Positions 7,007-23,765 of a DNA stretch of 30,227 nucleotides are shown one piece after another. Below the pieces are notes generated by a model, which saw nothing but the letters and a program-made list of their open reading frames with translations, searched no databases and had not been told where the DNA came from. Origin of the DNA: Actinomycetota bacterium (lineage in GTDB: Bacteria; Actinomycetota; UBA4738; CALAEC01); NCBI GenBank assembly GCA_036396815.1, contig DASWKD010000232.1, positions 1 through 30,227 of the forward strand, written 5' to 3'. How positions within the stretch are numbered: the stretch's first letter is position 1; each line of letters starts with the position of its first letter. The position numbers were made by a program, and so were the translations under genes.

Positions 7007-7028
7007 GTTCTGTGCAGTTGCACAAAGG
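7007..7028. promoter_or_regulatory. Palindromic operator-like site, copy 1 (GTTCTGTGCA-GT-TGCACAAAGG)
   Basis: Imperfect copy of the 22-bp palindrome also at 21512 and 23670. Intergenic, 60 nt upstream of a secreted-protein gene. An extra TCACAA lies at 7001-7006. Confidence 0.7.
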
Positions 7029-7088
7029 ATGTGGCCTGGGGGTCGTCGAAGTGGCCAGTGACAGCAGCCGACCCAAGGAGGATGGCCC

Positions 7089-8036
7089 ATGCACAGGAAA
7101 GCACTGCTGGCCACCCTGTTGGCCCTGGCATCGGTGGGCCTGCTTGCTCAGCCCGCCGCCGCCAACAGCGTGTCCTTCACGGACGTAACCCTGTCCGGCA
7201 ACACGGCCACGGTGGAGGGCGCCTACGCCTTCCCCGCGATCGCAACAGCCCAGGACGTGGGTGGCCTCAACACCAACTTCGCCGTCCACGACGTGGCCGT
7301 GGCCGCGGGCGTCGACCTGACCGCCGGCAAGATCATCCCCATCAACGGTGGTCTCCGGTTCGTATGGGAGATCAGCAACATGCCAGCAGAAGTCCCGCCC
7401 GAGGGCGTCCGCTATACCTGGGCCCTCAAGATCGGGAACACGCAGTACCAGCTCCAGGCCAAGCGTACGAACCTTGCGTCCACCACCACGACGGAGGACC
7501 CGGTGGGCCACGTGCAGCAGCTGGCCGCGCAGAAGAACTTCTTCCAGCTCCGCGGAGCGTGCCAGACCAGCTACCAGGGGACCCCTGCTGCCGGCTGCTA
7601 CCACCTGGCCTGGCTGAACGGCTCGTTCGACATCGCCGGGAAGAAGGTGTCGATGGACTGGCCCTACAACACCAAGGACCAGATCGGCAGGCTGGTGGCC
7701 CCGGACTTCGTTCCCGGGGTGGTCCTGGAGGAGGTCCTGGTGGCCAGCAGCTCGATCACCAGTAACTTCCAGGTGGTGGTCAGCAACACCACGACCAGCG
7801 ACTACATCAACGGCTGGGAGCCCTACTTCGCGGGCGGGCGGGTCCAGTTGGGGATCGGCAACCACACGTCCGGCCCCGAGGGCATCAGCTACGGCGCCCC
7901 GGTCACGCTGAACGCCGACGGCACGTTCGACGCCACGCTGAGCGGTCTGTCGGGATCCGCGAACACGATATTCGCGCGGGCCTGCAACGGCACCACGGCG
8001 ACCTGCGCGTACACCTCGCAGCGGGTCATCATCTAG
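7089..8036 (+). CDS. Secreted hypothetical protein (all-beta, unnamed module)
   Basis: SD AAGGAGG, Sec signal peptide MHRKALLATLLALASVGLLAQPAAA, strong GC3 codon bias. By-eye similarity to the C-terminal third of the protein at 21575-23614. Confidence 0.85.
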   Translation: MHRKALLATLLALASVGLLAQPAAANSVSFTDVTLSGNTATVEGAYAFPAIATAQDVGGLNTNFAVHDVAVAAGVDLTAGKIIPINGGLRFVWEISNMPAEVPPEGVRYTWALKIGNTQYQLQAKRTNLASTTTTEDPVGHVQQLAAQKNFFQLRGACQTSYQGTPAAGCYHLAWLNGSFDIAGKKVSMDWPYNTKDQIGRLVAPDFVPGVVLEEVLVASSSITSNFQVVVSNTTTSDYINGWEPYFAGGRVQLGIGNHTSGPEGISYGAPVTLNADGTFDATLSGLSGSANTIFARACNGTTATCAYTSQRVII

Positions 8037-8050
8037 CGACCCGTGACGCT

Positions 8051-8083
8051 GGAAGGGCGGCTCCTCCGGGGGGCCGCCCTTCC
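8051..8083. terminator. GC-rich hairpin between convergent genes
   Basis: 11-bp stem GGAAGGGCGGC / GCCGCCCTTCC enclosing TCCTCCGGGGG. Lies between stops at 8036 (+) and 8085 (-). Confidence 0.65.
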
Positions 8084-8084
8084 C

Positions 8085-8318
8085 TTATCCGCCCTCGCCG
8101 GTCTCCACGTCCGCGCGGTCGTCGGGCTGAGCCTGCTCGGCCCGCTCGGCGTCCACCAGCTGCCACAGCCATTGCCCCCAGGCCCGGATGTCAGGCCACG
8201 CTCGCCAGAAGTCCTCCACCGTGCTCTCCCCCAGGCTCCGCCACGCGTTCGGGGCCTTCTCCTCCTGGGCCATCTGCTCCAGGACCAAGATCGCGTCGTG
8301 GAACCGCTGCTCGTCCAT
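8085..8318 (-). CDS. Small Trp-rich hypothetical protein (77 aa)
   Basis: C-terminal end of ORF 8085..10283. GGAGGTG directly upstream of ATG 8318. Fills the otherwise empty gap and reads like a helical protein (MDEQRFHDAILVLEQMAQEE...). Confidence 0.7.
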   Translation of the reverse strand: MDEQRFHDAILVLEQMAQEEKAPNAWRSLGESTVEDFWRAWPDIRAWGQWLWQLVDAERAEQAQPDDRADVETGEGG

Positions 8319-8378
8319 CGCACCTCCAGGGTCGGTGGCCACAGTGTGCGCGAGGGGAGCGGATCCCCGCAACACGGG

Positions 8379-8384
8379 TAGCAT
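8379..8384 (+). promoter_or_regulatory. -10 box TAGCAT, probable leaderless promoter
   Basis: TAGCAT 6 nt upstream of GTG 8391. Confidence 0.6.
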
Positions 8385-8390
8385 GACCGG

Positions 8391-10418
8391 GTGACCAACC
8401 GTCTGGCCGCGGCGACCAGCCCGTACCTCCTCCCGCACGCGGGCAACCCCGTGGACTGGTACGAGTGGGGCTCCGAGGCCCTGGACCGGGCCACGGCCGA
8501 GGACCGGCCCATCCTGCTCTCGGTGGGGTACGCGGCCTGCCACTGGTGCCACGTGATGGAGCGCGAGTCGTTCGAGGACGAAGCGGTTGCCCGGCTGATG
8601 AACGAGGGCTTCGTGTGCATCAAGGTAGACCGGGAGGAGCGGCCGGACGTGGACGCCATCTACATGGACGCCGTCCAGGCCATGACCGGCCACGGCGGGT
8701 GGCCCATGACCGTGTTCCTGACCCCCGACCTCCAGCCGTTCTACGCGGGCACGTACTTCCCTCCCGAGGACCGCCACGGGATGCCGGGGTTCCCCAAGGT
8801 CCTGGAAGCCGTGACCAACGCGTGGGCCAACGAGCGCCACAAGATCCACGAGCAGGGCCGCCGGGTGACCGAGACCATCTCCCGCCGCCTGGCGCCATCG
8901 CCGGAGCCGCTGTCGGAGCGCCTGATCGAGGAGGCCCTGCGGGGCCTCCTGGGCGCCTACGACCGCGCGTGGGGCGGGTTCGGAGGAGCGCCCAAGTTCC
9001 CCCAGGCCATGACGCTGGACTTCCTGCTCCGGGCCCACCTCCGGGGGGAGGACCACGCCCTCCAGATGGCCACCACCACGCTGGCCCGCATGGCCGGGGG
9101 AGGGATCTTCGACCAGGTGGGCGGGGGCTTCCACCGGTACGCCACGGACGAGCGATGGCTGGTCCCCCACTTCGAGAAGATGCTGAACGACAACGCCCTG
9201 CTGGCCCGGACGTACCTCCACGCCTTCCAGGTGACCGGGCGCCGGGAGCTCCGGACGGTGTGCCGAGCCACCCTCGACTACCTCCTGCGGGACCTCCGGC
9301 ACCCCGACGGCGCCTTCTTCTCCGCCGAGGACGCGGACTCCGAGGGCCAGGAGGGCCGCTTCTACGTGTGGTCGTGGGACGACCTGGTGGCCGTGGCCGG
9401 CGAAGAGGCCGCCCGGTGGTTCGGGGCCTCGCCCGAGGGGAACTGGGAGGGCGCGAACATCCTGTGGACGGACGGCGAGCTCCGCGCCGTTCCACGGGAC
9501 GTCGAGGAAGCCCGGGGCACGCTCCTCGAGGCCCGGTCCGGCCGGGTCCGCCCGGCCACCGACGACAAGGTCCTGGCCGCGTGGAACGGCCTGGCCATCC
9601 GAGCCCTGGCCGAGGCCGGCCGGGTCCTGGGGGAGGCCCGGTACGTGGAGGCCGCCGAGCGGGCCGCGTCCTTCGTCCTGGCGGAGCTCCGGGGGCCGGG
9701 CGGCCGCCTCCTCCGGGCCTGGCGCGACGGCCGGACCAGCGGCCCCGGCTACGCCGACGACCACGCGTGCATGGCCGCGGCCTGCCTGACGCTGTACGAG
9801 ACCACCTTCGACCTGCGCTGGTTCCGGGAGGCCCGAGCCCTGGCCGACGACCTGATCCGCCTGTTCGAGGACCCCGAGGACGGGGGGTTCTACCAGACCG
9901 GCTCCGATGCCGAGGCGCTCCTGACCCGGCCCAAGGAGCTGTTCGACAACGCGGTGCCCTCCGGCAATTCGGTGGCCGCCGAGACGCTCCTCCGCTTGGC
10001 CCTGCTGACCGGCGACCCCACCTACGAGCGGAGCGCCGCCGGCGCCCTGCGCGCGGTGGGTGGGGTGCTCCCCCGGGCCCCGACGATGCTGGGGGAGGCG
10101 CTGGGAGCACTCGACCTGTACGTCGGGCCGTCGCGGGAGGTGGCGGTGATCGGCGACCCGAAGGCCGCAGCCCCCCTGGTGGAGCGGGTGTGGGAGGGGT
10201 TCCGACCCAACCTGGTCCTGGCCGCCGCCGCACCGGACGACCGCGGTGCCGCGGAGACCGTGGCCCTCCTGGCCGGCCGGCACGAGGTGGACGGGAAGCC
10301 GGCCGCCTACGTGTGCAGGCGGTTCGCGTGCGAAGCTCCGGTCACCGACCCCGATGCGCTATCGGCCCTCCTCGGCAGGTCCGCCGGCTCGTCGGATCAT
10401 AAACTCGACGGCCGGTGA
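8391..10418 (+). CDS. Thioredoxin domain-containing protein (DUF255/YyaL/SSP411 family)
   Basis: [81 protein letters not shown]. Confidence 0.93.
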
Positions 10419-11378
10419 CATGTTCGCCGGGATGAGCCGCGTCCCCGGGTGACGGGACGCCCACACCCGGAAGAGCTCATCGGCGAAGCCCTGGCCGACC
10501 TCCTCGACGCCCGCGAAGTCGATCTCCACCTCCTCGAATCCCTCGAGGTCCGCACCGATCCGTCTGGCCTCCGATCGGGAGACGAACCGGTCCCCGGTCC
10601 GGAACAGGCGGACGGCCACCCTCGACCGGGAGAACTCGTAGGAGTCCCGGGTGGTATAGCGCTCGAAGACATCCCGAAGGACGCGGGTGGTCGAGGGATC
10701 GAGGGCGCATCGGACCCGTGTCCCCTTGGAGCGGATGCTCTCGGTCACTGCTTCGTCGGCGCGGACGTTGTCCACGATCCATCGCAACCCGTTGGCGTCC
10801 AGCTCGAAGATGTCGACGGCCTTGGAAGTGAAGAAGATCCCCTCTCCCGTGTGCTGTTCCGGAGCCGTGGTCCGCTTCCCTTTGGTCAGCTCGAGCAGCG
10901 CCGTACGCTCGTCACCGAGACCGAGCCGCTGGCGGAGGTGCCTGTAGACGCCGACGCCGTCGTCCACGATCTCGAAAGCTGCCCGGGGTTCGCCGAGCCA
11001 CAGCAGGACTTCCGCCGATGATCCCCCGGAGTGCTCGATCGCGTTGTTCAGCATCTCCGTGAAGGCGTACCCGAGTATCGAGCGGGCGTTTGCCGTGATC
11101 CGTGACGGGAGGCGATCGTGGATCTCGCCCCACACCTCGTCTTCCTCCAGCCCGACCAGGGAGTACCGACGGGCGACATCGACCATGCGCGTATAGCGAG
11201 CGCCTCGTCCCCTGCCGGTGAGCGCCACCTCGCCCGCCGTGGCCAGCTTCCGGAGGTGGTAGTGAGCTGCCTGGCGGGTCACCCCGGCCGCCCGGGCCAC
11301 CTGGCCGCTGGTCACGCTCCCGTGCTGGGTCAGGAGGCGCCGGATCACGTCCCGGACGTCGGCCTTATCGCTACCCAC
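10359..11378 (-). CDS. wHTH - histidine-kinase-like ATPase - STAS-like (DUF4325) protein
   Basis: N-terminal HTH ([24 protein letters not shown]). HATPase boxes [30 protein letters not shown]-terminal FVSRSEARR...[20 protein letters not shown]. The 3' end overlaps the convergent gene by 60 nt. Confidence 0.85.
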
Positions 11379-11384
11379 GAAGCC

Positions 11385-11440
11385 ATTTTACCTTTTTACC
11401 TTCCAAGAGGGGGCTCTCTCGGGAAGCGTAAGAAGGTAAA
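11385..11440. promoter_or_regulatory. AT-rich promoter/operator with repeated AGGTAAA boxes
   Basis: Minus-strand TAAAAT (11385-11390) 6 nt before GTG 11378. Tandem TTTTACCT x2 (11386-11393, 11394-11401). Inverted copy GAAGGTAAA at 11432-11440. Confidence 0.6.
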
Positions 11441-11451
11441 GGACCTTTGGC

Positions 11452-11772
11452 TCAGGCCACGGTGCCTGTGAACGGCAGGCCCCGGCCCAGCCAGCGCTCC
11501 AGACCGCCCTCCAGGTTGTAGGCCTCGAAGCCCCGGGCCTTGAGGAGGTGCCGGGCCACCTCGCTGCGCTGGCCCACCGTGCAGTAGGCCACCACGGGCT
11601 TGGTGGGGTCGAGGTCCCCGGCCCCGGCCAGCAGGGCGTTCAGGGGGACGTGGATGGCGCCCTCGATCCGGCCGGCCTCCCACTCATAGGGCTCGCGGAC
11701 GTCCACGAACTGGACATCGTCGCGCCGCTGGTGGGCGGCCTGTGGATCGCTGAGGTCCGGCGTATCGGTCAT
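11452..11772 (-). CDS. Rhodanese-like domain protein
   Basis: VQFVDVREPYEWEAGRIEGAIHVPL, active-site loop YCTVGQRS, NLEGGLERW. Confidence 0.92.
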   Translation of the reverse strand: MTDTPDLSDPQAAHQRRDDVQFVDVREPYEWEAGRIEGAIHVPLNALLAGAGDLDPTKPVVAYCTVGQRSEVARHLLKARGFEAYNLEGGLERWLGRGLPFTGTVA

Positions 11773-11777
11773 CGAGG

Positions 11778-12416
11778 TCAGTGTAGCGCCAGGCCCAGCG
11801 AACGGGAGAGGTCGGACACGGAGCGCTTCGGGTCCTCGTGGACGTATCCCCGCATGCCCAGGGCCTGGGCCGCCTCCACGTTGGGTGGGAAGTCGTCCAC
11901 GAACAGGCAGGCCTCCGGGGGCAGGCTCAGGCGATCCGCGGCCAGCCGGTAGATGTCGGCCAGCGGCTTCCGCAGGCCGACTTGGCCCGAGATGACAACG
12001 GTGTCGAACAGCTCCTCCAGCAGCGATGTGGGGTAGTAGTGCAGGCCCCAGGAGTTCGAGACCAGGGCCGTGCGGACGCCCGCCGCCCGGGCCCGCCGGA
12101 CCAGGTCCACCATCCCTTCCTCGATCCCGATGCCGGCCACCATGCGATCCACCAGCCCCTCATGGGCCACGGGCCGGTCCAGGCCCTCGGACAGGACCTC
12201 GGCCAGACGGCGCTCGAACTCCTCGACCTCCATGCGTCCGGTCTCCACCAGCGACACGAAGTGCTCGGGATCCTGGTCGTGGTACGCGGACTTCAACGCC
12301 TCGCGGAGGCCCGAGGGGTCCACGCCTTCCTCGGCGCAGAAGCGCTCGAAGGCCTCCCCCAGGGGGCCGGTCAGGACGCCGCCGAAGTCGATCAGGAGGC
12401 CCCGGATGTCACCCAC
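11778..12416 (-). CDS. HAD-family hydrolase/phosphatase (ACAD10/epoxide-hydrolase N-terminal-like)
   Basis: Motif I LLIDFGGVL, motif II LVSNSW, motif III LRKP, motif IV FVDDFPPNVEAA. Confidence 0.9.
   Translation of the reverse strand: MGDIRGLLIDFGGVLTGPLGEAFERFCAEEGVDPSGLREALKSAYHDQDPEHFVSLVETGRMEVEEFERRLAEVLSEGLDRPVAHEGLVDRMVAGIGIEEGMVDLVRRARAAGVRTALVSNSWGLHYYPTSLLEELFDTVVISGQVGLRKPLADIYRLAADRLSLPPEACLFVDDFPPNVEAAQALGMRGYVHEDPKRSVSDLSRSLGLALH
11780..11785 (-). promoter_or_regulatory. -10 box TACACT, probable leaderless promoter
   Basis: TACACT 7 nt upstream of ATG 11772, embedded in the end of the upstream HAD gene. Confidence 0.5.
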
Positions 12417-13431
12417 CGCCGGCCACCGCCACGGCCCGGGCGGCCAGGGCGGGCACCGCGGTCTCCATCCGGGCGAAGAAGGGATCGTCGGTGTGACCGG
12501 CCAGGTGCCGGGCGTAGGAGCCCTCCAGGAGGATGGCCAGCTTCCACATGGCCAGCACCCGGAACGGGGTCAGGTCTTGCGCGGCGCGGCCCGTGCGCTC
12601 GCGGTAGCGGTCCAGGAGCTCGGCGCGGGTGGCGAACCCCGGACCGGCGGTGGGCCCGGCCAGACCCAGCTCGTCGTCCGGCTCCCCGGGCTGGTGCCAG
12701 AACGAGAGCATCCACCCGAGGTCGGCCATCGGGTCGCCGACCGTGGACATCTCCCAGTCCAGGATGCCCGCCACCCGGGTGGGATCGGGCGCCAGCATCA
12801 CGTTGTCCAGCTTGTAGTCGCCGTGCACGATGGTAGCCGGGCCCGAGGCCTCGGGCAGGTGCTCGCGGAGCCAGTCGGCGGCGGCCAGGAGGTCGGGCAG
12901 GGGCCTGGTCATGGGGACGGTCAGCTCCAGCTGGCCCCGCCACCGGCGGACCTGCCGGTGGAGGTAGCCGTCGGGCCTGCCCCAGGCCTCCAGGCCGGCC
13001 GCCCACGGGTCCACGGCGTGGAGATCGGCCAGGGCGTCCACCAGCGCCGGCCCGATCGCTGCCGGGTCGAGGCCCGCGGTAACCTCGTCGCGGAGCACGT
13101 GGCCCTCGATCATCTCCATCAGGTGGAACGGCGTGCCGATCACGTCCCGGTCCTGACAGGAGAGCACGGGCCTCGGCGTCGGAACGGGCGTGTCCTTCAG
13201 GGCGTCGAGGACCCGGTGTTCCCGCAGTACGTCGTGGGCCGTCGGGAGGAACGCGCCGGCCGGCGGGCGGCGCAGGACCCACGCATGGCCGGAGCGGCGG
13301 ACGAAGAACGTCTCGTTCGAATGCCCGGCGCGATGCCGCTCCACCTCGAAGGAGCCAGTGCCGGGCAGCCGGTCGTCGAGGTACCGGCCCAGGGCCTCCG
13401 GGTCGAGCAGCCGGGGGGCCGTCTCCGGCAT
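12409..13431 (-). CDS. APH-family phosphotransferase (LvaA / ACAD10-11 kinase-like)
   Basis: 3' part of ORF 12409..13872, start ATG 13431 (TGATG overlap). AGHSNETF, WVLRRPP, AHDVLREHRVL, IVHGDYKLDNVML, ILDWEMSTVGDPMADLGW. Confidence 0.92.
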   Translation of the reverse strand: MPETAPRLLDPEALGRYLDDRLPGTGSFEVERHRAGHSNETFFVRRSGHAWVLRRPPAGAFLPTAHDVLREHRVLDALKDTPVPTPRPVLSCQDRDVIGTPFHLMEMIEGHVLRDEVTAGLDPAAIGPALVDALADLHAVDPWAAGLEAWGRPDGYLHRQVRRWRGQLELTVPMTRPLPDLLAAADWLREHLPEASGPATIVHGDYKLDNVMLAPDPTRVAGILDWEMSTVGDPMADLGWMLSFWHQPGEPDDELGLAGPTAGPGFATRAELLDRYRERTGRAAQDLTPFRVLAMWKLAILLEGSYARHLAGHTDDPFFARMETAVPALAARAVAVAGGG

Positions 13432-14639
13432 CACTCGACGGACCCCGTGGCGGCGCGCGTGCTCCCGTCGCGCTCCGATGCCTTCACCAGAGCCCGGGCG
13501 ATGGCCATGCGGTGGACCTCGGACGGGCCGTCGTAGATCCGGGCTGCGCGCGCGTCGCGGTACGCGGCCTCCAGCGGCGTGTCCGCCGAGTACCCCAGCG
13601 CCCCGTGGACCTGGAGCGCCCGGTCCACGATGTCGCCGAGGGCCTCGGCCACGAACACCTTGACCATGGCCACCTCCTGCCGGTGCTCCAGGCCTCGCTC
13701 CAGCTTCCACGCCGCGTGCAGGACCATGAGCCGGGCCGCGTGCAGCTGGATGGCCGAATCGGCCAGCCCGAAGGCCACGCCCTGGTGCCCGGCCAGCGCG
13801 CGGCCGAACGCCTCCCGGTCCCTGGCCCGGGCCGTGGCCAGGTCCAGAGCCCGCTGGGCCAGCCCGATCCACCGCATGGCGTGTCCCAGCCGGCCGTGGC
13901 CCAGGCGGCCCTGGGCGATGGCGAAGCCGTCACCCGCCGCGCCGACCAGCGCGTCGGCCGGGACCCGGCACCCCTCCAGCCGGATCTCGCAGTGGCCACC
14001 GGGGAGGTGCGTGCCCATGGTGGGAATGTCGCGGATCACCGTCCAGCCAGGCGTGTCCGTGGGGACCAGGAACAGCGAGGCCCGCCGGTGGGGCTCGGCA
14101 CCGGGGTCCGTGACCGTCATGACCAGCGCGAACGCCGCGCCGTCCGCGCCGCTGATGAACCACTTCTCGCCGTCCAGGACCCACCCGTCGCCGTCCCGGC
14201 GGGCCATGGCCCGCAGGAGGGTGGGGTCGGAGCCGGACACCTCCTTCTCGGTCATGGCGAAGCAGGACCGGATGGCGCCGTCGGCCAGCGGCCGGAGGTA
14301 CCGCTCCCGCTGTTCGTCGGTGCCGTGGTCGAGGAGGACGTGCATCGTGCCCTCGTCGGGGGCCATGCAGTTCAGGGCCAGCGAAGCCAGGGCCGAGACG
14401 CCACACGCCTCCTGGACCAGGGCCACACCGGTGGGCTCCAGACCCAGGCCTCCGTATGCCGCGGGGAGGTGCGGGTTCCACAGGCCGGCGGCCCGGGCCA
14501 CCTCGCGCAGGGGGACCAGGTCCCGGTCGGTGACCGGATCACCGATCCCGGGCTCGGCGGGAAGGACGTGGTCCCGGACGAACGCGCGGACGCGGTCGCG
14601 GATCTCTCGGAGGGCGGCGGGGATCGTGAAGTCGATCAT
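13431..14639 (-). CDS. Acyl-CoA dehydrogenase (LvaC / ACAD10-11-like subfamily)
   Basis: LNCMAPDEGTMHVL, IRSCFAMTE..SGSDP, GEKWFISGA, QGRLGHGRLGHAMRWIG, RIYDGPSEVH. GGAGG 8 nt upstream. Confidence 0.93.
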   Translation of the reverse strand: MIDFTIPAALREIRDRVRAFVRDHVLPAEPGIGDPVTDRDLVPLREVARAAGLWNPHLPAAYGGLGLEPTGVALVQEACGVSALASLALNCMAPDEGTMHVLLDHGTDEQRERYLRPLADGAIRSCFAMTEKEVSGSDPTLLRAMARRDGDGWVLDGEKWFISGADGAAFALVMTVTDPGAEPHRRASLFLVPTDTPGWTVIRDIPTMGTHLPGGHCEIRLEGCRVPADALVGAAGDGFAIAQGRLGHGRLGHAMRWIGLAQRALDLATARARDREAFGRALAGHQGVAFGLADSAIQLHAARLMVLHAAWKLERGLEHRQEVAMVKVFVAEALGDIVDRALQVHGALGYSADTPLEAAYRDARAARIYDGPSEVHRMAIARALVKASERDGSTRAATGSVE

Positions 14640-14661
14640 CGACCCATCCTCCCACCCGGGC

Positions 14662-15531: not shown

Positions 15532-15578
15532 GAGGTCGTATCCTTCTACACGTCATGCCATCCAGGCGAATCCGACCC

Positions 15579-15914: not shown

Positions 15915-16708
15915 CCGTCCAGGAACGCGGCCATCCGCTGGACCACGCCGGGGATGTCGCGGAGCAGGGCGTTGGGATCGTCGAACAGGACGAGCTCAGC
16001 GGCCGGGAGCGCCGCGGCCAGCTCCTCGGCCACGCCGGCCGCGTGCACCGGGTCCCCCCGCTGGCCGATCACCAGGCAGGGAGCGCGCACGCCGGCCACC
16101 GCCGATGCGTCGTCCCGCAAGGGCGGGTCGTCCAGCAGCTCCCGGATCGCGTGGGGCATGGCCTCGCGGTTCATGCGGAGGATGACCTCGCGGCGGAGCT
16201 CGCGGGCCGCCGGGAACTCCTCGAACGGTCCCGCGGCCTCCTCCTCGGCCAGCAGGATGTCGGCCACCTCCTCGACCGGGTACCGCTCCAGGAGGTCGGC
16301 CAGATGGAGCAGCTGGGTGTGGGCGGTCATGGACCGTTCCAGGCGGGCGGGCAGGAGGAACACGAGACGCTCGAACCGGTCGGGGACCCGGGTCAGCAGG
16401 CGAAGCGCGGCCCCGCCCCCCAGGGAGATCCCGGCCAGCCCCGTGGCCCCGAAGGCCTCGGCCACCGCGTCCACGTCGGCGGCGAAGTCGTCCATCGAGT
16501 AGTGGCCGGGACCGGGGCGCTCGCTGTCGCCGTGGCCGCGGAAGTCGAACAGGACCTTGGTCCCGGGGAGGAACGGGGCGAAGATGGCCAGGTCGGTCCG
16601 GCTGCCGGTCAGGCCGTGGGCCAGGACCGTGACCGCGGATCCCTCCCCGATCACCTCGGCGGCCAGCTTCACGCCTCGAGACTCCACCCAGGTCTGCACG
16701 GTCGCCAT
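15905..16708 (-). CDS. Alpha/beta-fold hydrolase
   Basis: 3' part of ORF 15905..17185, start ATG 16708. LAHGLTGS, FDFRGHGDS, nucleophile elbow GISLGG. Confidence 0.88.
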   Translation of the reverse strand: MATVQTWVESRGVKLAAEVIGEGSAVTVLAHGLTGSRTDLAIFAPFLPGTKVLFDFRGHGDSERPGPGHYSMDDFAADVDAVAEAFGATGLAGISLGGGAALRLLTRVPDRFERLVFLLPARLERSMTAHTQLLHLADLLERYPVEEVADILLAEEEAAGPFEEFPAARELRREVILRMNREAMPHAIRELLDDPPLRDDASAVAGVRAPCLVIGQRGDPVHAAGVAEELAAALPAAELVLFDDPNALLRDIPGVVQRMAAFLDGYR

Positions 16709-16716
16709 TGGGTGGG

Positions 16717-16722
16717 AGGCTA
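16717..16722 (-). promoter_or_regulatory. -10 box TAGCCT
   Basis: TAGCCT 8 nt upstream of ATG 16708, no SD. Confidence 0.45.
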
Positions 16723-16731
16723 TCCGACCGG

Positions 16732-19575
16732 CTACTCCAGGCGCAGGTTCCCGGACGAGAGGGTCACGTCGCCGGAGCCGTAGAGCATCGTCCCCATCGG
16801 GTCCCGGAGGGTGGCGGTGAAGGCATCGGCTCCGACGCCCGGCGCTCCCCCGTCGGCCACCGTGTACCGGAGCGTGCCGGGGAAGGCCCCGTTGACCATC
16901 CCCCGGACCTGGACCAGTGCCCGGTCCCCAGCCACGACCACCCAGTCGTACGCGTCGCCCTCGAACCGTCCGAAGGAGCCGTCCAGGCGGGTCGGGTTCT
17001 TCCACGCCGTGCCGTCGTGCTGGACGCCACCCAGGGTCAGTCGGGTCCGCATCGAGGCTGTGTCCGGTCCCATCCCGGCCCCGGCCAGGCTGCGCTCTCC
17101 GTCCATGACGGCCAGCTCGATGGTTCCGACGGCCCCGCCGGTCCAGTACAGGTTCGTCCCGGGGACCGTGACCTCCACACCCCACAGGTCGATGGGCAAG
17201 CCGGGCGCCACGGTGATGGCATCTCCCGAGGCGTCGACACCGGCCGTGAACGAGAGGGGCATCGAGGTCAGGGTGGGCGTCAGGTCGAAGCGGGCCTCGG
17301 CCAGCGACAGGTCCCCCGGCGAGCCGTCGGCGTCCTGGGTGGCGTGCGCCGCCAGCACGGGAGCGGCCGGGGCGACCACCGCGCCATCGCCCGTGTACGC
17401 GAAGGACAGCGTCTCCTTCCGGACCTGGTAGGCCACGGTGACCTCGGTGGGCAGGTACGTGGGGTCTCCATCGAACGAAGCCGTGGCCGGCACCAGGTCG
17501 GCGGGCTGGTCCAGGACGATCTGAGCGCTCCCCTGGCCGTCCGGCCCGGTCGTGGCCGAGGCTCCCTGCGGGCCCATCGCCAGGCCGATGGTCCGGCCGG
17601 GCAGCGGTGCGCCGTTGATGGCGTCGGTCAGGATGGCCGAGGCAGTCGTCGGATCGGAGTACTGGCCAACCGTGTCGCCGGCCCAGGCCAGAGCGGAGGG
17701 CCGCCGCTCCACCATGTAGGGGACGGTCACGGAGGCGGGAGCGTGCTTGCCGAACCGATCCATGGACACCGTGAGCTCATACGCGCCGGGGGGAACCGAC
17801 AGCGATGGGTCCGCCGAGGCCACGCCGTCCGCACCCGACACCCCCGATGCGGAGAGCGAGCCGCCCGGTCCGTCGAGCTCGAACATCACGGTGGCCCCCT
17901 CGACCGGTGGCGTGCCCGCGTCGTCAGGGTTCGTGACCTGCGCGGTGAACCCCGCTCCCTCTCCGGTCGGCGCGGAGGGCTGGCCCGTGTACGTCAGGTC
18001 GGTCTCGTCCAGGACCACGTTGACCTCGAACGGGCCGTTGGAGGCGATCGTCGGGTCCGAGAAGTCCCGCCCGACCACCCCGATGGTCTGGACGCCCGTG
18101 GGAGCATCGGCCGCGGGACGAAGAGGGATGAACGCCGTGGCCGGCTCGTGCTCTTCCAGCGTCTTGTGGTCGAACCCCGGGGTCCATCCGGCCGGCAGGT
18201 CGAAGAGCTCGAACCGGAACGTGTCGGTCTCCTCGCCGGTGTTCATCACCGGGATGCGCAGGATGTTGGTCTCCTCGGGCGTCACGTCGATCCGCATGGG
18301 ATGTCCGGTCTCGTCCATGGGATCGACCAGGATGCCCGGCCCCCGGACGTCGAAGAACACCCGCATCGAGCCGGAGGCCGCAGGGATGGCCCGCACGGCC
18401 ACCCGGGGGCCGGTGGTGGGGGCGAAGGCCCGCTGGGGCGTGTCGTCGTCGGACGGGTCCCAGGCGTCGATCCCGCTCCCTCCGTAGCAGCCGCCGTTGC
18501 ACCCGCCGGGGATGGTGCCGTCGGGCCGCTTGATCTCGATCGGTCGCACGGCGTTGGTGTCGCTGGTGTACAGGTCGTCATTGATCTCCCAGATCACCAG
18601 CCCGGAGTCGCTGGCGCTGTCGTCGTACGTCCCGTCCTCGCGGATACGGTTCTCCACGATGTAGTACCGATCGGTGCCCTCATCGGGGTCGTACAGGATG
18701 AAGTGCTCGCCGGCCAGGTTCAGGCCGTTGACGTCCCCGTAGGCATCCCGGGTGGGGATGTAGGGGTTCGCCCAGCCGAGGTGCAGGAGGTGCCAAGCCG
18801 TGGTGCGCCGGAGGCTGAGGGGGGCGTTGTTGCAGGTCGGCCCCATGATGTCGAATCGTCCGACCCCCGCCCGGTACCGGTCGATGGTGTCCAGAGCCAC
18901 GTGGGTGGTCTCGTGGATGATCGTGGCCAGGTTGGTGTCCGTGCCGTCGTTCGTGGTCTCGATCTCCATGTCCACGCCGTCGAGGGTCACCGGGTCCACA
19001 CCGCGCGTCGTCCCGCATCCCCCGACCAGGTCGGGATCGGCGTCGAAACGATGGACCACCAGCTCCAGGTTCGTGATCCGGCCGTCGCCGTTCCTGTCGA
19101 AGTCCGAGAAGTCGACGAAGGGATCGGCCTCTTCGAGCAGGAACTTCGCTTCGGCGGAACGCCCCATCTGGAGGAAGTCACCCTTGTCTTGGTCCACGGA
19201 TATCGAGACGATCCCGTCGTTCACCGCACCCCCGTTCGAGGCGTCGGTCTCCAAGGCCCGGGAGAACACCAGGTCCCCGTGGGAGTTCTCGATGAAGTAG
19301 TCGCGGACGCTGGGGAACGGCCCGAAGAACCGCTCCTCCCAGAACGCGGCGTCCTGCCCCGCCGGGTACGGGACGTCGTTGAACTCCGCGTACAGGACGA
19401 GCATCGGCCGGTCGGTGCTGCCACCCGTGAACGAGTACCGCTCGCTGTGCGGATCGTCGCGGTGCGCGAAGTCCGGAAGGTCGTCCGGATAGGGCGGAGC
19501 GGCCGCGGCGGACCCTCCGGAGATAAGGACGGACACGATCACGGCGGTCGTGAGGGCCTTGGGCGTGGACAGCAT
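16732..19575 (-). CDS. Secreted M6-like (immune inhibitor A-type) zinc metallopeptidase with C-terminal Ig-like domains
   Basis: Signal peptide. MLVLYAEFND and SVRDYFIENSHG (M6 N-terminus). Zinc motif IIHETTHVALDTIDRY, Met-turn FDIMG, HLGW, YYIVENR. Followed by several Thr/Pro/Gly-rich beta-sandwich repeats. SD GGAGGGAG. Confidence 0.8.
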   Translation of the reverse strand: MLSTPKALTTAVIVSVLISGGSAAAAPPYPDDLPDFAHRDDPHSERYSFTGGSTDRPMLVLYAEFNDVPYPAGQDAAFWEERFFGPFPSVRDYFIENSHGDLVFSRALETDASNGGAVNDGIVSISVDQDKGDFLQMGRSAEAKFLLEEADPFVDFSDFDRNGDGRITNLELVVHRFDADPDLVGGCGTTRGVDPVTLDGVDMEIETTNDGTDTNLATIIHETTHVALDTIDRYRAGVGRFDIMGPTCNNAPLSLRRTTAWHLLHLGWANPYIPTRDAYGDVNGLNLAGEHFILYDPDEGTDRYYIVENRIREDGTYDDSASDSGLVIWEINDDLYTSDTNAVRPIEIKRPDGTIPGGCNGGCYGGSGIDAWDPSDDDTPQRAFAPTTGPRVAVRAIPAASGSMRVFFDVRGPGILVDPMDETGHPMRIDVTPEETNILRIPVMNTGEETDTFRFELFDLPAGWTPGFDHKTLEEHEPATAFIPLRPAADAPTGVQTIGVVGRDFSDPTIASNGPFEVNVVLDETDLTYTGQPSAPTGEGAGFTAQVTNPDDAGTPPVEGATVMFELDGPGGSLSASGVSGADGVASADPSLSVPPGAYELTVSMDRFGKHAPASVTVPYMVERRPSALAWAGDTVGQYSDPTTASAILTDAINGAPLPGRTIGLAMGPQGASATTGPDGQGSAQIVLDQPADLVPATASFDGDPTYLPTEVTVAYQVRKETLSFAYTGDGAVVAPAAPVLAAHATQDADGSPGDLSLAEARFDLTPTLTSMPLSFTAGVDASGDAITVAPGLPIDLWGVEVTVPGTNLYWTGGAVGTIELAVMDGERSLAGAGMGPDTASMRTRLTLGGVQHDGTAWKNPTRLDGSFGRFEGDAYDWVVVAGDRALVQVRGMVNGAFPGTLRYTVADGGAPGVGADAFTATLRDPMGTMLYGSGDVTLSSGNLRLE

Positions 19576-19639
19576 CTCGGGCTCCCTCCCCCAGGGGATC
19601 CGAACGGGCGGATCCCCCTCAGATGTGGCGAACCCCTCG

Positions 19640-19668
19640 ATTCAATCCCCGGACCATGAGCCTGTCAA
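19640..19668 (-). promoter_or_regulatory. Sigma70-type promoter TTGACA-N17-TTGAAT for the M6-like gene
   Basis: Minus strand: TTGACA (19668-19663), 17 nt, TTGAAT (19645-19640), about 65 nt upstream of ATG 19575. Confidence 0.65.
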
Positions 19669-19680
19669 GACCGCCACATG

Positions 19681-19712
19681 GGAGGGAGCCCCCGTGACCG
19701 GGGGCTCCCTCC
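19681..19712 (-). terminator. 14-bp perfect hairpin, probable terminator of the M28 gene
   Basis: GGAGGGAGCCCCCG-TGAC-CGGGGGCTCCCTCC, 22 nt after the stop at 19735 and just upstream of the next promoter. Confidence 0.75.
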
Positions 19713-19734
19713 TCCGTTCGGGCGCTCGGACGTG

Positions 19735-21453
19735 CTAGACGGCCGCGGTTCCGATCTTGAGCTGCATGGTGTCCGACTGCTCGGTGTCCGGGTCGGTCAC
19801 CGTCAGGGTCACGATGTGGCCCTTGGCCGCGCCGAACATGTGAGTGACCACCTTGCCTGTCGCCGTGACCCCGTCGCCGAAGTCCCATGCGTACTCGAGC
19901 GAGTCATCCATCTCCAGGGTCCCGGCGTCCTCGTACCGGTAGGAGCCCGAGGCGTCGAAGGTGTGGGTCCCGCCGTTCATGTTGGGGCTGGGGGTCTCGA
20001 AGAAGGCCACCGGCTCCTCGTTCACGGTCTGCGAACCGCCCTGGGTGGGCTGGAGCATGGTCGCCGCAGACAGGATCGAGCACAGCTCGAACGACATGGA
20101 CAGGCCCTTCGAGAAGGTCGTCCCCGTCTGGTCGGCGTGGGTCTGGGCCACCAGCTGCTCCCAGTTGTCGTGCGGCGAGTGGTACACCCACAGCCCGTCG
20201 GGGCCGTAGCCCAGGTCGTTCGGGTTGGTCGAGACCGCGTGCGGGCCCACCAGGTCCGGGTACGGGTTCAGGGTGGGGACCCAGTTGTGGAAGTCCTCGG
20301 CATCGGTGGTGAATAGGAGGAGGCCCTTCTCGGTGACCTTGAGCACACTCTCCTGCTCCAGGGCCGCCGCCCCAAGCTCCGTGGCCTCCTCGTTGGACAG
20401 GAACACCGGGACCACGCCGGGCTCCTGGCTCTGGCCCGTGTACGACAGGGTGTCGTCGATGTTGTTGAAGATGGCGTTGATGAGCGGCCGCATGCTGGCG
20501 TTGAAGGCCGTCATCCGGGCCCGCTCCTCGGTGGTGCCGGCCGGGGCGTGCAGGGCGATGTTCATGGGGATGAACGGGCTCTTCTCCACGGCCGGGTTCC
20601 GCGACACGGGAGACCCGCGGTAGAAGGCGGGGTAGTGGCCGCCGCACGGGTCGTGGTTGATGTACGAGGTCAGGGTGACGTTGGGATCCTTGGGCAGGCT
20701 CCCGTTCTGGGAGGTCCGGCTGTTCTCGGTTCCGACGTACAGCTTGGAGCCCTGCCCGCCGGCCTCCTCCGCGTCCCACGCGGCGAAGATCACGGTCTTC
20801 GACGGGCGCGTCCCGGTGGCCTTCCAGTAGTCGGCGAGGAGCTTCGCGGTGCGCAGCATGGTGCCTGAGCCGGCCGTCGAGTCCCACGCGGCGTACGGAG
20901 AGCCGTCCACACCGTCGTAGTGGCTGCCGATCAGCACGAAGTCCTCGGGGTTGTCGGCGCCGGGCACGATGGCGAACTTGTTGAAGGCCCGTCCGGCGTT
21001 GGTATCGAAGTTGTCGCCCAGCCCGGTAAGGCCCCCTCCCCCACCGGTGGAGGTGAACTCCTGGGTCCGGAAGCTCACCCCGACGTCCTTGAGGACGTCG
21101 GTGTAGGCGGTCTCGAACCAGGCCAGGTACTCCAGCTGGTGGTTGTACGTGCACCCGATGTCCCGGACGTCACCGATGACCTTGCACTGGGGCTGGTCAC
21201 CGGAGGGGTCGTTCGTGGTGGTATCGCCCGGCTGGCGGTTGGTCAGGTTGTTCGCCACGAAGTTCACCACGTTGTACGAGTTATACGTCCGCCAGTTGTC
21301 CAGGTCCGCCAGGTCGGGGATGGGCTGGTACAGGTCGGTCAGCTTCTTCAGGTCCAAGGGCAGGGAGCTTTCCTCGGCCTGGCTCTGGGGCATCCCGGTG
21401 AGGAGCATGGCCAGCGAGGCCACCAGAGCAACCGCAAGGCGCAGCTTGGTCAT
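19735..21453 (-). CDS. Secreted M28-family metallopeptidase with C-terminal PKD domain
   Basis: Start ATG 21453 (SD AGAAAGGA), signal peptide. Metal-ligand motifs IGSHYDG, AWDSTAGSG, AWDAEEAG, INHD, YHSPHDNW. PKD: FDASGS...YAWDFGDG...HMF...VTLTVTD. Confidence 0.88.
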   Translation of the reverse strand: MTKLRLAVALVASLAMLLTGMPQSQAEESSLPLDLKKLTDLYQPIPDLADLDNWRTYNSYNVVNFVANNLTNRQPGDTTTNDPSGDQPQCKVIGDVRDIGCTYNHQLEYLAWFETAYTDVLKDVGVSFRTQEFTSTGGGGGLTGLGDNFDTNAGRAFNKFAIVPGADNPEDFVLIGSHYDGVDGSPYAAWDSTAGSGTMLRTAKLLADYWKATGTRPSKTVIFAAWDAEEAGGQGSKLYVGTENSRTSQNGSLPKDPNVTLTSYINHDPCGGHYPAFYRGSPVSRNPAVEKSPFIPMNIALHAPAGTTEERARMTAFNASMRPLINAIFNNIDDTLSYTGQSQEPGVVPVFLSNEEATELGAAALEQESVLKVTEKGLLLFTTDAEDFHNWVPTLNPYPDLVGPHAVSTNPNDLGYGPDGLWVYHSPHDNWEQLVAQTHADQTGTTFSKGLSMSFELCSILSAATMLQPTQGGSQTVNEEPVAFFETPSPNMNGGTHTFDASGSYRYEDAGTLEMDDSLEYAWDFGDGVTATGKVVTHMFGAAKGHIVTLTVTDPDTEQSDTMQLKIGTAAV

Positions 21454-21511
21454 GTCCGTGATCCTTTCTCGAAGGTCCTGCCCCGGTTGTTCACCGGACC
21501 CCCTCGGAAAC

Positions 21512-21533
21512 CCTTTGTGCACATGCACAAAGG
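21512..21533. promoter_or_regulatory. Palindromic operator-like site, copy 2 (CCTTTGTGCA-CA-TGCACAAAGG)
   Basis: Perfect 10-bp arms. Intergenic, 58 nt upstream of the M28 start. Confidence 0.8.
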
Positions 21534-21574
21534 CCAGAGGGGGATCCCTCCCCCGGTGTCCGTTCCGTCCCGGT

Positions 21575-23614
21575 TCAGCCGACCGTGACCGCCTCCGACC
21601 GCTCGTGGCAGGCGTCCGCGAAGCAGGCCCGGACCACCGCGGTGTAGTCGCCGGGGGCCAGCCCCTCCACCGCCGCCTGGAACGAGGACAGGTCACCCGA
21701 CAGGCCGGCCGGGGTCGAGGCCACCTCGGTCCCGGAGCCATCGAGGACCGAGATCTGGACCGTGGCCTCGGGCACGGTGAACGTCCCCGAGCCCGTCCCG
21801 GTGTCGGGGCCCACGAACACGGTCCCGGCGGCCGTTCCCGTTTCCACCGCCACCCGCACGTCGACGGCGGTGGGCCGGACGGTACCTCCCGGGGCCAGGC
21901 CCAGCGCGGCCAGGGGCACCCGGGCCACCGCCCGATCCCCTCCCAGGTCGAAGTCCCCGCGGACCCGCTGGCAGGGGGCCCCGGTCCGGCACACCTCGAA
22001 GCGCCTGGGCGTGCCTCGCATGCGCAGGGAGTAGGTGGCCCCTCCCACGTCCAGGGTCCACTCGGCCTCGGCGGGGGACTGCACGGCCTCGAGCATGCCC
22101 TCGATCCCGAGGACGAACACCAGGTCGTCGGAGCGGGCCGTGGTCCGGGCGATGGTGCCCGCACGGATGTCGTAGGACGACGTCCCGTCCTCGTCGTTCA
22201 CCACGGTGACGGGGGCAGCCCGGCCGAAGGTGGCCGCGCCCGACACGTCCACCGAACCGATGCCTCCGGCGACCGTCAGATCGTCGATCGAGGTCTGGTC
22301 CGTGGCGTGGGTGATGATCCGAGGCCCGCCCGCCTGGACCACCCAGTCGGTGCACATGTTCTTGTACGCTGCGGCCCCTCCGTGCGCGCTCAGGTTGCCA
22401 TTGCACCCGGGCAGATGGTCCTCCACGAACGAGATGTGGAACCGGCCATCCGGGCCCACCGCGATCTGCTGGTAGTCCCACAGCGTCCGGCCCAAGGATC
22501 CACGGTGGATCACCCGGTCCAGCGTCCCGTGGGTGATCACCGGCGCGTCCGAAGCCGCCCCGGTGATGACCGCGGCCTTGACCCTCCACTCGGACGTGGC
22601 AGGCACCGAGTTCTGATGGGCCTTCGAGGGGTTGTGGTACCAGGTCAGAGCCACCCGCCCGTCGTCTCCGGCGGCCACCCAGGGGAACGTGGAGCACCCC
22701 TCGTCCTGATTCACCCGGTACTGCTGCCATGTGGCGCCCTTGTCGGAGGAGACCGTCAGGTACACGTCGCACCCGCTGCCGTTGATGTCGGCCCACGTGC
22801 CGTACACGTTCCCGGCCCGGTCCACGTCCACGCTGACCATGAACGGGGCGATCCCGTTGCGAGGGGACGTCGCCGCGGGGGCCTCGGACCACGTCTCCCC
22901 CGCGTCGTGCGAGGACACCGTGCACAGCGAGCTGGACCCGGGGGCGCACCGGCCGAAGAAGTACACGTCGTCGGTCCGGCGGTCGGCGGCCACGTTGCCC
23001 GGGAAGAACCGCTGGCCGGCGCCGATCGTGTTGTAGGCGTCCATCCAGGTGTGGCCGCCGTCGGTGGACTTCCAGATCTGGGTGTGGGTCACGTGGTTGA
23101 CGTACAGGTAGATGGCCCCGTTCGAGTACGAGAGCCAGGGCCGGTCGTCGACACCCGGGAGCACCGTCACCGTCTCATCGGTGTACTCCCACACGTCGCC
23201 GCGTCCGCTCCACTTGGTCAGGAAGATGCTGGGCACCCAGGTGTCGGAGAAGTACACGGAGCCGGCGTCGTCGATCACGAAGTCGCCCTCGGCCCCGAAG
23301 CCCCACTCGCGGGCCTTGCCCGGCGAGGGGAGGTCGGTCCACGTGGCGCCATCGTCCTTGGAGTACCAGGCGGGGGCGGCCCGGGCCACGCAGCACACCC
23401 CGGCCACGTAGATCGTCCCGGCCTCGTCCACCTTGATGCTGGGCTCCCCCGGCCCGCCCACCTGGGCCGGGTCGGTGAACGGCATCCGGACCGGGGCCCC
23501 GAAGGAGATCCCCTCCTCGTGCACGGGCTCGGGGGCCCCAGCCCCCTGGGAGGGCCCGGGGACCACGATCCCCGCAGCCACGACCGCCGTCACCAGCACC
23601 AGCTTCGCTCTCAT
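21575..23614 (-). CDS. Secreted Asp-box (BNR)/sialidase-like beta-propeller protein with unnamed C-terminal module
   Basis: Start ATG 23614 (SD AAGGAG), signal peptide. Four Asp-boxes: YSKDDGATW, KSTDGGHTW, SSHDAGETW, SSDKGATW. GEPSIKVD and DRPWL are typical of this propeller family. Confidence 0.85.
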   Translation of the reverse strand: MRAKLVLVTAVVAAGIVVPGPSQGAGAPEPVHEEGISFGAPVRMPFTDPAQVGGPGEPSIKVDEAGTIYVAGVCCVARAAPAWYSKDDGATWTDLPSPGKAREWGFGAEGDFVIDDAGSVYFSDTWVPSIFLTKWSGRGDVWEYTDETVTVLPGVDDRPWLSYSNGAIYLYVNHVTHTQIWKSTDGGHTWMDAYNTIGAGQRFFPGNVAADRRTDDVYFFGRCAPGSSSLCTVSSHDAGETWSEAPAATSPRNGIAPFMVSVDVDRAGNVYGTWADINGSGCDVYLTVSSDKGATWQQYRVNQDEGCSTFPWVAAGDDGRVALTWYHNPSKAHQNSVPATSEWRVKAAVITGAASDAPVITHGTLDRVIHRGSLGRTLWDYQQIAVGPDGRFHISFVEDHLPGCNGNLSAHGGAAAYKNMCTDWVVQAGGPRIITHATDQTSIDDLTVAGGIGSVDVSGAATFGRAAPVTVVNDEDGTSSYDIRAGTIARTTARSDDLVFVLGIEGMLEAVQSPAEAEWTLDVGGATYSLRMRGTPRRFEVCRTGAPCQRVRGDFDLGGDRAVARVPLAALGLAPGGTVRPTAVDVRVAVETGTAAGTVFVGPDTGTGSGTFTVPEATVQISVLDGSGTEVASTPAGLSGDLSSFQAAVEGLAPGDYTAVVRACFADACHERSEAVTVG

Positions 23615-23669
23615 CGCTTGGGCTCCTTCCCTTCGCTGGGTGAAGTGTTCGCCCCAGGGGGCCCCGGTC

Positions 23670-23691
23670 CCTTTGGGCATCTGCACAAAGG
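23670..23691. promoter_or_regulatory. Palindromic operator-like site, copy 3 (CCTTTGGGCA-TC-TGCACAAAGG)
   Basis: One mismatch from perfect. Sits between the divergent Asp-box (55 nt away) and LVIVD (74 nt away) genes. Confidence 0.78.
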
Positions 23692-23765
23692 GTTCCGGAG
23701 CCCTCACGGTGAAGAAACCGTGAAGGGGCGGGCCCGCACGCCCGGACCCCGATCGAGGAGGAACG

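Follow-up and report, generated by a model that had tools for sequence, protein, structure and literature searches.

Sigma factors of the sigma-H type are described as a Firmicutes family (PMC3364868), and the promoters that they read carry the consensus elements RNAGGAWWW at -35 and RNNGAATWW at -10 (PMC8510167). PucR-family regulators, found mostly in Actinobacteria and Firmicutes, are mostly activators that bind inverted repeats of 17-24 bp, and the site of one of them, GabR, lies directly upstream of the -35 element (PMC7652997). Here, we report on a 22-bp palindrome with an associated GAA box that recurs in a 30,227-nt contig (DASWKD010000232.1, C232 in our numbering) of an Actinomycetota bacterium. 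This contig, analyzed over its whole length and called the window below, belongs to a fragmented metagenome-assembled genome (MAG), G000, of 1.65 Mb in 332 contigs, 71.6% G+C and 73% complete, whose closest named relatives are MAGs labelled 'Actinomycetota bacterium'. The explanation that we consider probable is a composite promoter, in which a sigma-H-type core and an 18-bp dyad that would be bound by a dimeric regulator, likely an activator, drive a suite of exported proteins.

The arrangement has counterparts in better known systems. At class II CRP/FNR sites (a 22-bp dyad at -41.5) and at lambda cI on PRM, a dyad of about 20 bp likewise lies about 42 bp upstream of the start and overlaps the -35, a second class of positions is found further upstream, and one site can serve divergent promoters. 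At sigma-H promoters co-activated by Spo0A, a second DNA-binding protein, which is a predicted one in our case, likewise sits at or beside the -35 of a subset of promoters; unlike the 0A boxes, the co-regulator site here is a perfect dyad. The half-sites are spaced as TGTG-N6-CACA in all 57 copies that we count in G000, which sets the dyad apart, as first proposed, from the sites of CRP/GlxR and Rex (TGTG-N8-CACA; TGTGA-N6-TCACA and TTGTGAA-N4-TTCACAA, respectively).

The palindrome and its box in the window, the genome and the clade

The original prediction, made from the window alone, described three palindrome copies at 7007-7028, 21512-21533 and 23670-23691, located 55-74 nt upstream of four genes for secreted proteins, each gene being faced by a box at a fixed distance with an invariant G at position 17 and GAA at positions 20-22. 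All three copies are present, and 100 dinucleotide-preserving shuffles of the window gave zero matches; a position-weight scan of the window returned exactly these four promoters, in agreement with the impression by eye that there were no further copies. The distances from palindrome to start codon are 60, 58, 55, and 74 nt, and the boxes at positions 16-23 read, as noted before, CGTCGAAG (7044-7051), CGGTGAAC (complement of 21489-21496), CGGTGAAG (23707-23714) and GGGCGAAC (complement of 23647-23654). The elements of the window are as follows.

7007..7028, no strand: dyad copy 1, GTTCTGTGCAGTTGCACAAAGG, distal end degenerate, core TGTGCA-GT-TGCACA intact
7024..7032, plus strand: sigma-H-type -35, AAAGGATGT (cf. 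RNAGGAWWW), sharing the last 5 nt of the 22-mer of dyad copy 1
7045..7051, plus strand: sigma-H-type -10, GTCGAAG (cf. RNNGAAT), 12 nt past the -35
7089..8036, plus strand: target gene, 315-aa signal-peptide protein, no Pfam family
19735..21453, minus strand: target gene, secreted M28 peptidase with a PKD domain
21489..21495, minus strand: sigma-H-type -10 of the M28 promoter, GGTGAAC
21508..21516, minus strand: sigma-H-type -35 of the M28 promoter, AAAGGGTTT
21512..21533, no strand: dyad copy 2, perfect, CCTTTGTGCACATGCACAAAGG, serving the minus-strand M28 gene
21575..23614, minus strand: target gene, secreted BNR/Asp-box (Sortilin-like) protein
23647..23653, minus strand: leftward sigma-H-type -10, GGCGAAC
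23666..23674, minus strand: leftward sigma-H-type -35, AAAGGGACC
23670..23691, no strand: dyad copy 3, CCTTTGGGCATCTGCACAAAGG, 1 mismatch, in a divergent intergenic region and serving both flanking genes
23687..23695, plus strand: rightward sigma-H-type -35, AAAGGGTTC
23708..23714, plus strand: rightward sigma-H-type -10, GGTGAAG
23766..25073, plus strand: target gene, secreted LVIVD-repeat protein

The three mismatches of copy 1 are all in its gene-distal half, and the predicted start site of the promoter that it serves is at about 7059-7061. All four target genes have signal-peptide-like N-termini, and their identities (no Pfam match; M28 and PKD; BNR/Sortilin; LVIVD) are those given originally. 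The TAnnnT box is absent from all four leaders, as had been observed; the tRNA genes of G000 do carry such boxes (TAGAAT, TACAAT, TATACT), and the promoters described here are accordingly not of the housekeeping kind.

Extended to the whole of G000, the search (≤4 mismatches) found 57 palindrome copies, against a chance expectation of <0.2 by our own estimate; the reversed pattern used as control gave 0 matches in all 21 genomes searched. The motif is not spread over coding sequences at large, i.e., 56 of the 57 copies are intergenic in a genome of which only 110 kb (6.7%) is intergenic, and for most of them a start codon follows after 45-85 nt. A copy number of this order means that we are not dealing with a regulon of four genes, as originally proposed, and about 60 promoters are found in the incomplete G000. 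A cGnCGAAy box stands on at least one side of 56/57 copies, facing the flanking gene, with mirror-image boxes at divergent sites. Over 76 site-gene pairs the box begins 15 nt from the palindrome in 41, 14 nt in two and 25 nt in five; in the 25-nt minor class, where the distance is 10 bp longer, the box comes with its own complete -35 of the AGGAGT type.

The logo of 41 aligned promoters separates two components in the 22-mer. On the box side the 22-mer ends in AAAGG, with AGG in 41/41, and is followed by G/A, T/G, T/A and C/T, and its far end is degenerate if no gene lies there (distal CC in 18/41 and 31/41). The symmetric core is conserved on both sides, with 34-41 of the 41 promoters in agreement at every position. 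Since AGG is fixed on the box side, the far end is degenerate and the inner core is conserved on both sides, the 22-mer is composed of an 18-bp symmetric core, TTTGTGCA-NN-TGCACAAA, and an asymmetric AGG that forms a unit with the box. The idea of a 22-bp palindrome holds, in other words, for the inner 18 bp, which are symmetric, and fails for the outermost CC/GG, which belong to the -35. The 18-bp dyad abuts the -35 with an overlap of 2-3 bp. The -10 reads G (37/41), n, C (33/41), G (41/41), A (38/41), A (41/41), then C (17) or T (14). Seven genes with such a promoter have an ATG only 8-12 nt past the GAA and are apparently leaderless, and the logo has an A-rich column 11 nt past the GAA; taken together, these distances put about 41.5-43.5 bp between the dyad center and the predicted start downstream of it. 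As an observation apart, two identical dyads (C129:1694 and 2488) flank one small secreted-protein gene in G000, and a transposase-like helix-turn-helix open reading frame starts 127 nt from the second of them, at the contig end.

The bias toward secreted proteins, claimed from four genes, is confirmed in the genome: 41 of 57 dyad-promoter genes (72%) pass our signal-peptide test compared with 109 of 757 other operon-leading genes (14%), with an odds ratio of 15 and p = 3e-20. Of the 16 genes that fail it, roughly half plainly encode proteins with a Tat or Sec signal or were given a wrong start. Pfam searches with a sample of the dyad genes found M28, S8, and M14 peptidases, BNR, LVIVD and PNGase-like proteins and many without a family; S1 peptidases are also part of the exported suite.

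Among 27 genomes of the family, the dyad is found in six (5 genera, 15-67 matches each at ≤1 mismatch) and in none of the other 21. When 185,579 species genomes were scanned for exact matches, it was found in multiple copies with the promoter architecture only in these MAGs and in a further Actinomycetota genome, JBHELK01 (G035), which brings the motif-bearing set to seven species-level MAGs; all further genomes had single chance matches, apart from SKJD01. The latter, labelled Candidatus Hydrogenedentota, has two perfect 22-bp palindromes and no GAA box, and was not counted in the clade because of this missing box and its G+C content of 59%. The composite promoter is that of a secretome regulon in a narrow clade of uncultured soil and sediment Actinomycetota. 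Orthologues of the M28 target gene occur only in dyad-bearing genomes, and in five orthologous M28 promoters dyad and box are both retained at a distance of exactly 15 nt, the 15 nt between them being unrelated in sequence and all else having diverged, a pattern which points to selection on a protein-binding site and not to a mobile repeat.

These data also bear on a reading of the palindrome as a non-regulatory repeat, of the repetitive extragenic palindrome (REP) or miniature inverted-repeat transposable element (MITE) kind, or as a terminator hairpin. It is indeed a short perfect inverted repeat in many copies, and copy 2 is located 41 nt past the stop codon of the upstream BNR gene. We find such a reading hardly credible: the copies have nothing in common beyond the 22-mer and the box, with neither flanking repeats nor an extended unit; the box always points toward a gene start, and copies occur in divergent regions where no upstream gene ends; there is no T-run, and a loop of 2 nt is too short for a hairpin; at orthologous promoters in five genera the motif is kept despite diverged flanks; and an Rfam scan of the window matched no family.

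The sigma-H-type core and the dyad-less promoters

The -35 to -10 spacer is 12 nt in 41/76 site-gene pairs and 11 nt in two. Sigma-H promoters of B. subtilis have a spacer of 11-12 nt. The -35 of the logo (A-A-A-G-G-r-w-w-y) fits RNAGGAWWW, and the -10 (G-n-c-G-A-A-y) fits RNNGAAT, although the final base is T in only about one third of the promoters and the WW tail is not seen. The invariant G17 and GAA of the window boxes are the RNNGAA of a sigma-H-type -10, because the logo matches the consensus element by element. The claim of an undescribed regulon consequently needs to be divided: its -35/-10 part is of the described sigma-H type, and it is the 18-bp operator that is undescribed (searching the literature with the motif letters yielded primers and unrelated items only). 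The -35/-10 pair is of a known kind that, as far as we found, was not previously worked out in Actinomycetota.

The same core also occurs without the dyad. Approximately 22-25 promoters of the form AGGAATCC-N10-CGnCGAAy (-35 region gcAGGAATCC) are found in the intergenic DNA of G000, again with AGG 15 nt before the box and a 12-nt spacer. They precede genes for signal-peptide proteins, four genes for extracytoplasmic function (ECF) sigma factors, on C109, C276, C113, and C307, and the sigH-like gene on C273. For comparisons among genomes we used the strict pattern CAGGAWTCC-N10-CGNCGAAY with ≤1 mismatch and the reversed pattern as control; a looser pattern, AGGAWTCC-N10-CGNCGAAY at 2 mismatches, was dropped since it matched in every genome.

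Three sigma genes of G000 score above the SigH/Spo0H equivalog cut-off of NCBIfam (NF006148), i.e., C76:11270-11926 (305 bits), C273:5858-6526 (262) and C76:593-1249 (227), and public annotation names these sigmas 'sporulation sigma factor SigH [Actinomycetota bacterium]'. The core sigH-like gene adjoins an rlmB/yacO-like methylase gene, which we take to be the gene order of B. subtilis. One high-scoring copy of the SigH-like sigma is present in 10 of 12 other family genomes and in only 1 of 8 genomes that represent the seven remaining families of the order. The strict dyad-less pattern has 25 matches in 12 sigma-positive genomes, 1 in 9 sigma-negative genomes, and 0 for the reversed control; in G012, which has no dyad, such promoters lie upstream of signal-peptide genes, one of them apparently leaderless. 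G000 itself has three Bacillus-type sigma-H paralogues where family genomes have one core copy each. The extra paralogues were considered as the dyad-linked sigma and set aside, being scattered among genomes and not tracking the dyad.

The four ECF genes that carry the dyad-less promoter are C109:878-1420, C276:3-764, C307:4588-5604, and C113:1631-2659. Three of them have an ATG 8-12 nt past the -10 and are probably leaderless, and the whole is suggestive of a cascade in which sigma-H stands above other sigmas. Autoregulation is frequent among ECF sigmas, and their promoters have a -35 with an AAC core, a spacing of about 16-17 nt and a CGT-type -10. Given that autoregulation is usual and that the four ECF genes share one promoter, three with very short leaders, one or several ECF sigmas could read the GAA box and the AGGAAT -35 in place of a SigH-like sigma, all four being autoregulated; GGAAT...CGnCGAA does resemble an ECF-type promoter. 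Yet a position-by-position comparison of the motif and its 12-nt spacing with the sigma-H consensus shows agreement, which is the better fit, and four different paralogues with one promoter type are better accommodated by a cascade under a single upstream sigma. The strict pattern moreover tracks the SigH-like gene over 21 genomes (25 matches versus 1), and one sigH-like paralogue carries the promoter. We therefore regard reading by ECF sigmas as quite unlikely and retain a SigH-like sigma as the reader of the core.

Other sigma types were discarded as well. A sigma-28/WhiG promoter (TAAA-N15-GCCGATAA) would need a spacing 3 nt shorter than the one seen, and the dyad-less promoters are without TAAA; for sigma-54, the GG/GC spacing is wrong; and a lead to the mycobacterial SigK/ECF19 type, with a CCGAAT-type -10, was dropped when the paper gave no motif. 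Compared with B. subtilis sigma-H (Spo0H), we find the same fit of -35 and -10, the same 12-nt spacer, a sigma above the SigH cut-off, the rlmB/yacO-like neighbor and a large regulon of an alternative sigma, with further sigma genes among its targets. Unlike in B. subtilis, the host is an uncultured high-G+C actinomycetote, the -10 ends in C no less often than in T, and the regulon is mostly one of exported proteins, not of sporulation or competence genes.

The dyad as probable operator and a candidate PucR-family regulator

The original prediction had offered two possibilities, a dimeric activator (possibly PucR/CdaR-like) or an alternative/ECF sigma, and had noted no evident regulator in the window. 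The evidence fits both together, as a sigma-H-type core plus the operator of a dimer, sigma-H itself having two domains in the manner of ECF sigmas, and the PucR-family candidate beside palindromes is indeed on another contig. In the mechanism that we propose, RNA polymerase with one of the Bacillus-SigH-like sigmas of G000 would read a -35 of the form RNAGG(r)(w)(w)(y), 12 nt, and a -10 of the form G-n-c-GAA-y, the first five bases of the -35 being the proximal AAAGG of the 22-mer. A dimeric helix-turn-helix regulator would bind the 18-bp dyad at its position upstream of the predicted start and most likely activate by touching region 4 of sigma, in the manner of class II activation or of lambda cI at PRM; at a divergent site, a single dyad would serve two mirror-image promoters. 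With the PucR-family protein encoded at C203:1921-3096 as the leading candidate regulator, these elements together could co-ordinate an exported suite of M28, S8, M14, and S1 peptidases, BNR and LVIVD proteins and many unknowns.

How the dimer would act can be judged to some extent from the promoters. In the 3' part of the -35, i.e., the six bases past AGG that are outside the dyad, the mean score is -0.7 in promoters with the dyad versus +3.5 in promoters without it (random, -6.8), which suggests that a helper compensates for the weaker -35. The same composite promoter could otherwise be under repression: the dimer would occupy a dyad operator at the upstream border of the -35, and the secretome would stay off as long as no signal removed the dimer. 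The overlap of dyad and -35 is also a classical repressor position, the regulator gene of G000 has dyads downstream of its predicted start where a bound protein would repress, and PucR of B. subtilis is both activator and repressor (PMC7652997). Operators of repressors need no fixed spacing, however, and here 41 of 76 pairs share one distance, 15 nt, and a minor class is 10 bp further out; a -35 that is weaker outside the dyad than in the dyad-less class is what one expects of activator-dependent and not of derepressible promoters; and in two genomes, G005 and G025, a dyad is shifted about 19 bp upstream and does not touch the -35. Repression at these promoters seems unlikely to us. The rigid spacing with its class one helical turn away, the weaker -35 and the prevalence of activators in the PucR family favor activation as the predicted sign.

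The candidate has HTH_30 (55 bits) and GGDEF_2 domains, which assign it to the PucR family. Its gene is the only one for a DNA-binding regulator beside dyads in G000 among the flanking genes scanned. It heads a cluster of three dyad targets, and its own leader has a plain sigma-H-type promoter, AGGAATCC...CGCCGAAT, then two overlapping degenerate dyads just past the predicted start; on that prediction, this is a self-repression layout. In G005 and G025 the regulator gene is the last of an operon whose sigma-H-type promoter is the one with the more distant dyad. This three-gene operon (G005:C159:1293-9103; G025:C65) encodes a large secreted protein, a GGxGxD (RTX-like) repeat protein and the PucR-like regulator, whose gene overlaps or abuts that of the repeat protein. 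A PucR-family protein is, in this way, encoded and linked to the dyads in three genera. Full-length orthologues (657-733 bits) are present in G000, G003, G005, and G025 and in 0/21 dyad-negative family genomes, and a scan of all species genomes with a signature peptide found the regulator only in dyad-bearing MAGs.

The operator is also of the right kind. PucR-family sites are inverted repeats (PutR 17-bp, AdeR 24-bp, C. glutamicum GabR 21-bp), and the dyad, an 18-22-bp inverted repeat with an 18-bp core abutting the -35, is likewise paired with a candidate that has HTH_30 and GGDEF-like domains. Its half-site begins with TTGTG as does that of PutR, which we take to bind TTGTGG-N5-CCACAA, as did the original prediction (a text search for the PutR site gave nothing usable); unlike PutR, the spacing is TTGTGC-N4-GCACAA and not N5. 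Unlike the known members of the family, which are local regulators of one catabolic operon, the candidate would have about 20-60 sites per genome and would work with an alternative sigma. That the C203:1921-3096 protein binds the dyad is, from its gene position, distribution and family, a plausible proposal which we hold at somewhat short of probable.

Several observations weigh against this assignment and against the composite reading more generally. The regulator is not in every motif-bearing genome; we found it in 4/7, and not in G011, G002, and G035/JBHELK01. G011, which is 87% complete and rich in dyads, and G035 have no HTH_30 match above cut-off, and G002 (68% complete) has only a distant HTH_30 paralogue. 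The regulator gene adjoins a repeat-rich gene at which contigs end, which may explain some of the losses; the gene upstream of the regulator is too divergent to mark the contig breaks in G011, G002, and G035. As for the M28 gene, the distribution could be no more than that of an island specific to the clade. On the side of the sigma factor, the core sigH-like gene has no such promoter visible, and the acting paralogue would be one of the three SigH-like sigmas. Please note also that the sequencing runs which hold the locus are soil and sediment metagenome DNA only, two of these runs containing 86% and 77% of the locus words and no RNA run being listed, and that both the gene calls (a codon-usage model trained on long open reading frames of G000) and the signal-peptide test are heuristics of our own.

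The absences just listed are what one would see if another regulator, of the NarL/GerE type or another helix-turn-helix dimer that is unassembled or unrecognized, bound the dyad, with the PucR-like protein as a passenger of a co-regulated island. Sites of GerE-type proteins have a 6-2-6 or 7-2-7 geometry (DosR, NarL 7-2-7), and TraR recognizes a TGTGCA half-site in the tra box, ATGTGCAGATCTGCACAT. The dyad fits this geometry, has the TGTGCA half-site and lies near -42 as such sites do, and G000 has 17 GerE-domain matches, several in small stand-alone proteins. Unlike the tra box with its 4-bp center, the dyad has a center of 2 bp, and we found no GerE-type protein with a matching distribution. 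The GerE candidates tested are without orthologues in other dyad genomes, whereas the PucR-like gene is the sole one beside dyads among the flanking genes tested, is linked to them in three genera and belongs to a family whose sites match. Another regulator is, in our view, a possibility of some weight that stays doubtful, and the PucR-family protein remains our leading candidate.

Among the proteins that were rejected, the small stand-alone GerE protein C39:1818-2024 is without an orthologue of more than 65% identity in the remaining dyad genomes, and an operon of a GerE gene and a sigH-like gene on C267 occurs in G000 only. In this apparent operon (C267:2408-3249), the gene for a 79-aa GerE-type helix-turn-helix protein lies 5 nt upstream of that for a divergent sigH-like sigma (198 aa, 144 bits). 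A survey of the GerE family across the relatives was not discriminating. The gene for a CRP-family protein on C100 is the lone one of its family found in G000, and the half-site spacing is wrong for it.

Wider meaning and neighboring genes

We tentatively envisage that a sigma-H of Firmicutes type has been kept in this uncultured Actinomycetota family as the master sigma of an exported repertoire and of an ECF cascade, and that in a subclade a PucR-family protein may have taken on the role of a global activator of class II type for this alternative holoenzyme, acting at 20-60 identical operators in a genome of 2-3 Mb. If this is true, the PucR family, so far known as local catabolic regulators, would gain its first global regulon and an activator that works with an alternative sigma. 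The promoter grammar of Bacillus sigma-H appears to be in use well beyond the Firmicutes and to serve another physiological end there, and promoter, sigma and regulator would form a compact expression module. In practice, two short motifs predict the genes of a secretome program in an uncultured lineage, about 5% of genes and many of unknown function, and may be used for annotating exported hydrolases in soil and sediment MAGs.

In the window, a fourth large secreted protein of the same block, Big_1/CarboxypepD_reg-like (16732-19575, minus strand), is without a sigma-H-type promoter, and a TTGACA-like hexamer is found in the region upstream of its gene (19576-19734); neighboring secreted genes are, on this account, not all members of the regulon. 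The genes for an RGG-box protein (26112-26561) and for a winged helix-turn-helix, HATPase and STAS protein (10359-11378) had neither a dyad nor a sigma-H-type promoter in the position-weight scan.

The Pfam-less secreted proteins under dyad control include that of 7089-8036 in the window and those of C294:6436-7335, C307:3654-4544, C44:2901-3794, and C325:12346-13911 elsewhere in G000. Several of them have a similar N-terminal stretch past the signal peptide, …VS/TVT…G(D/N)…V.G…, and from this resemblance they may form an unnamed family.

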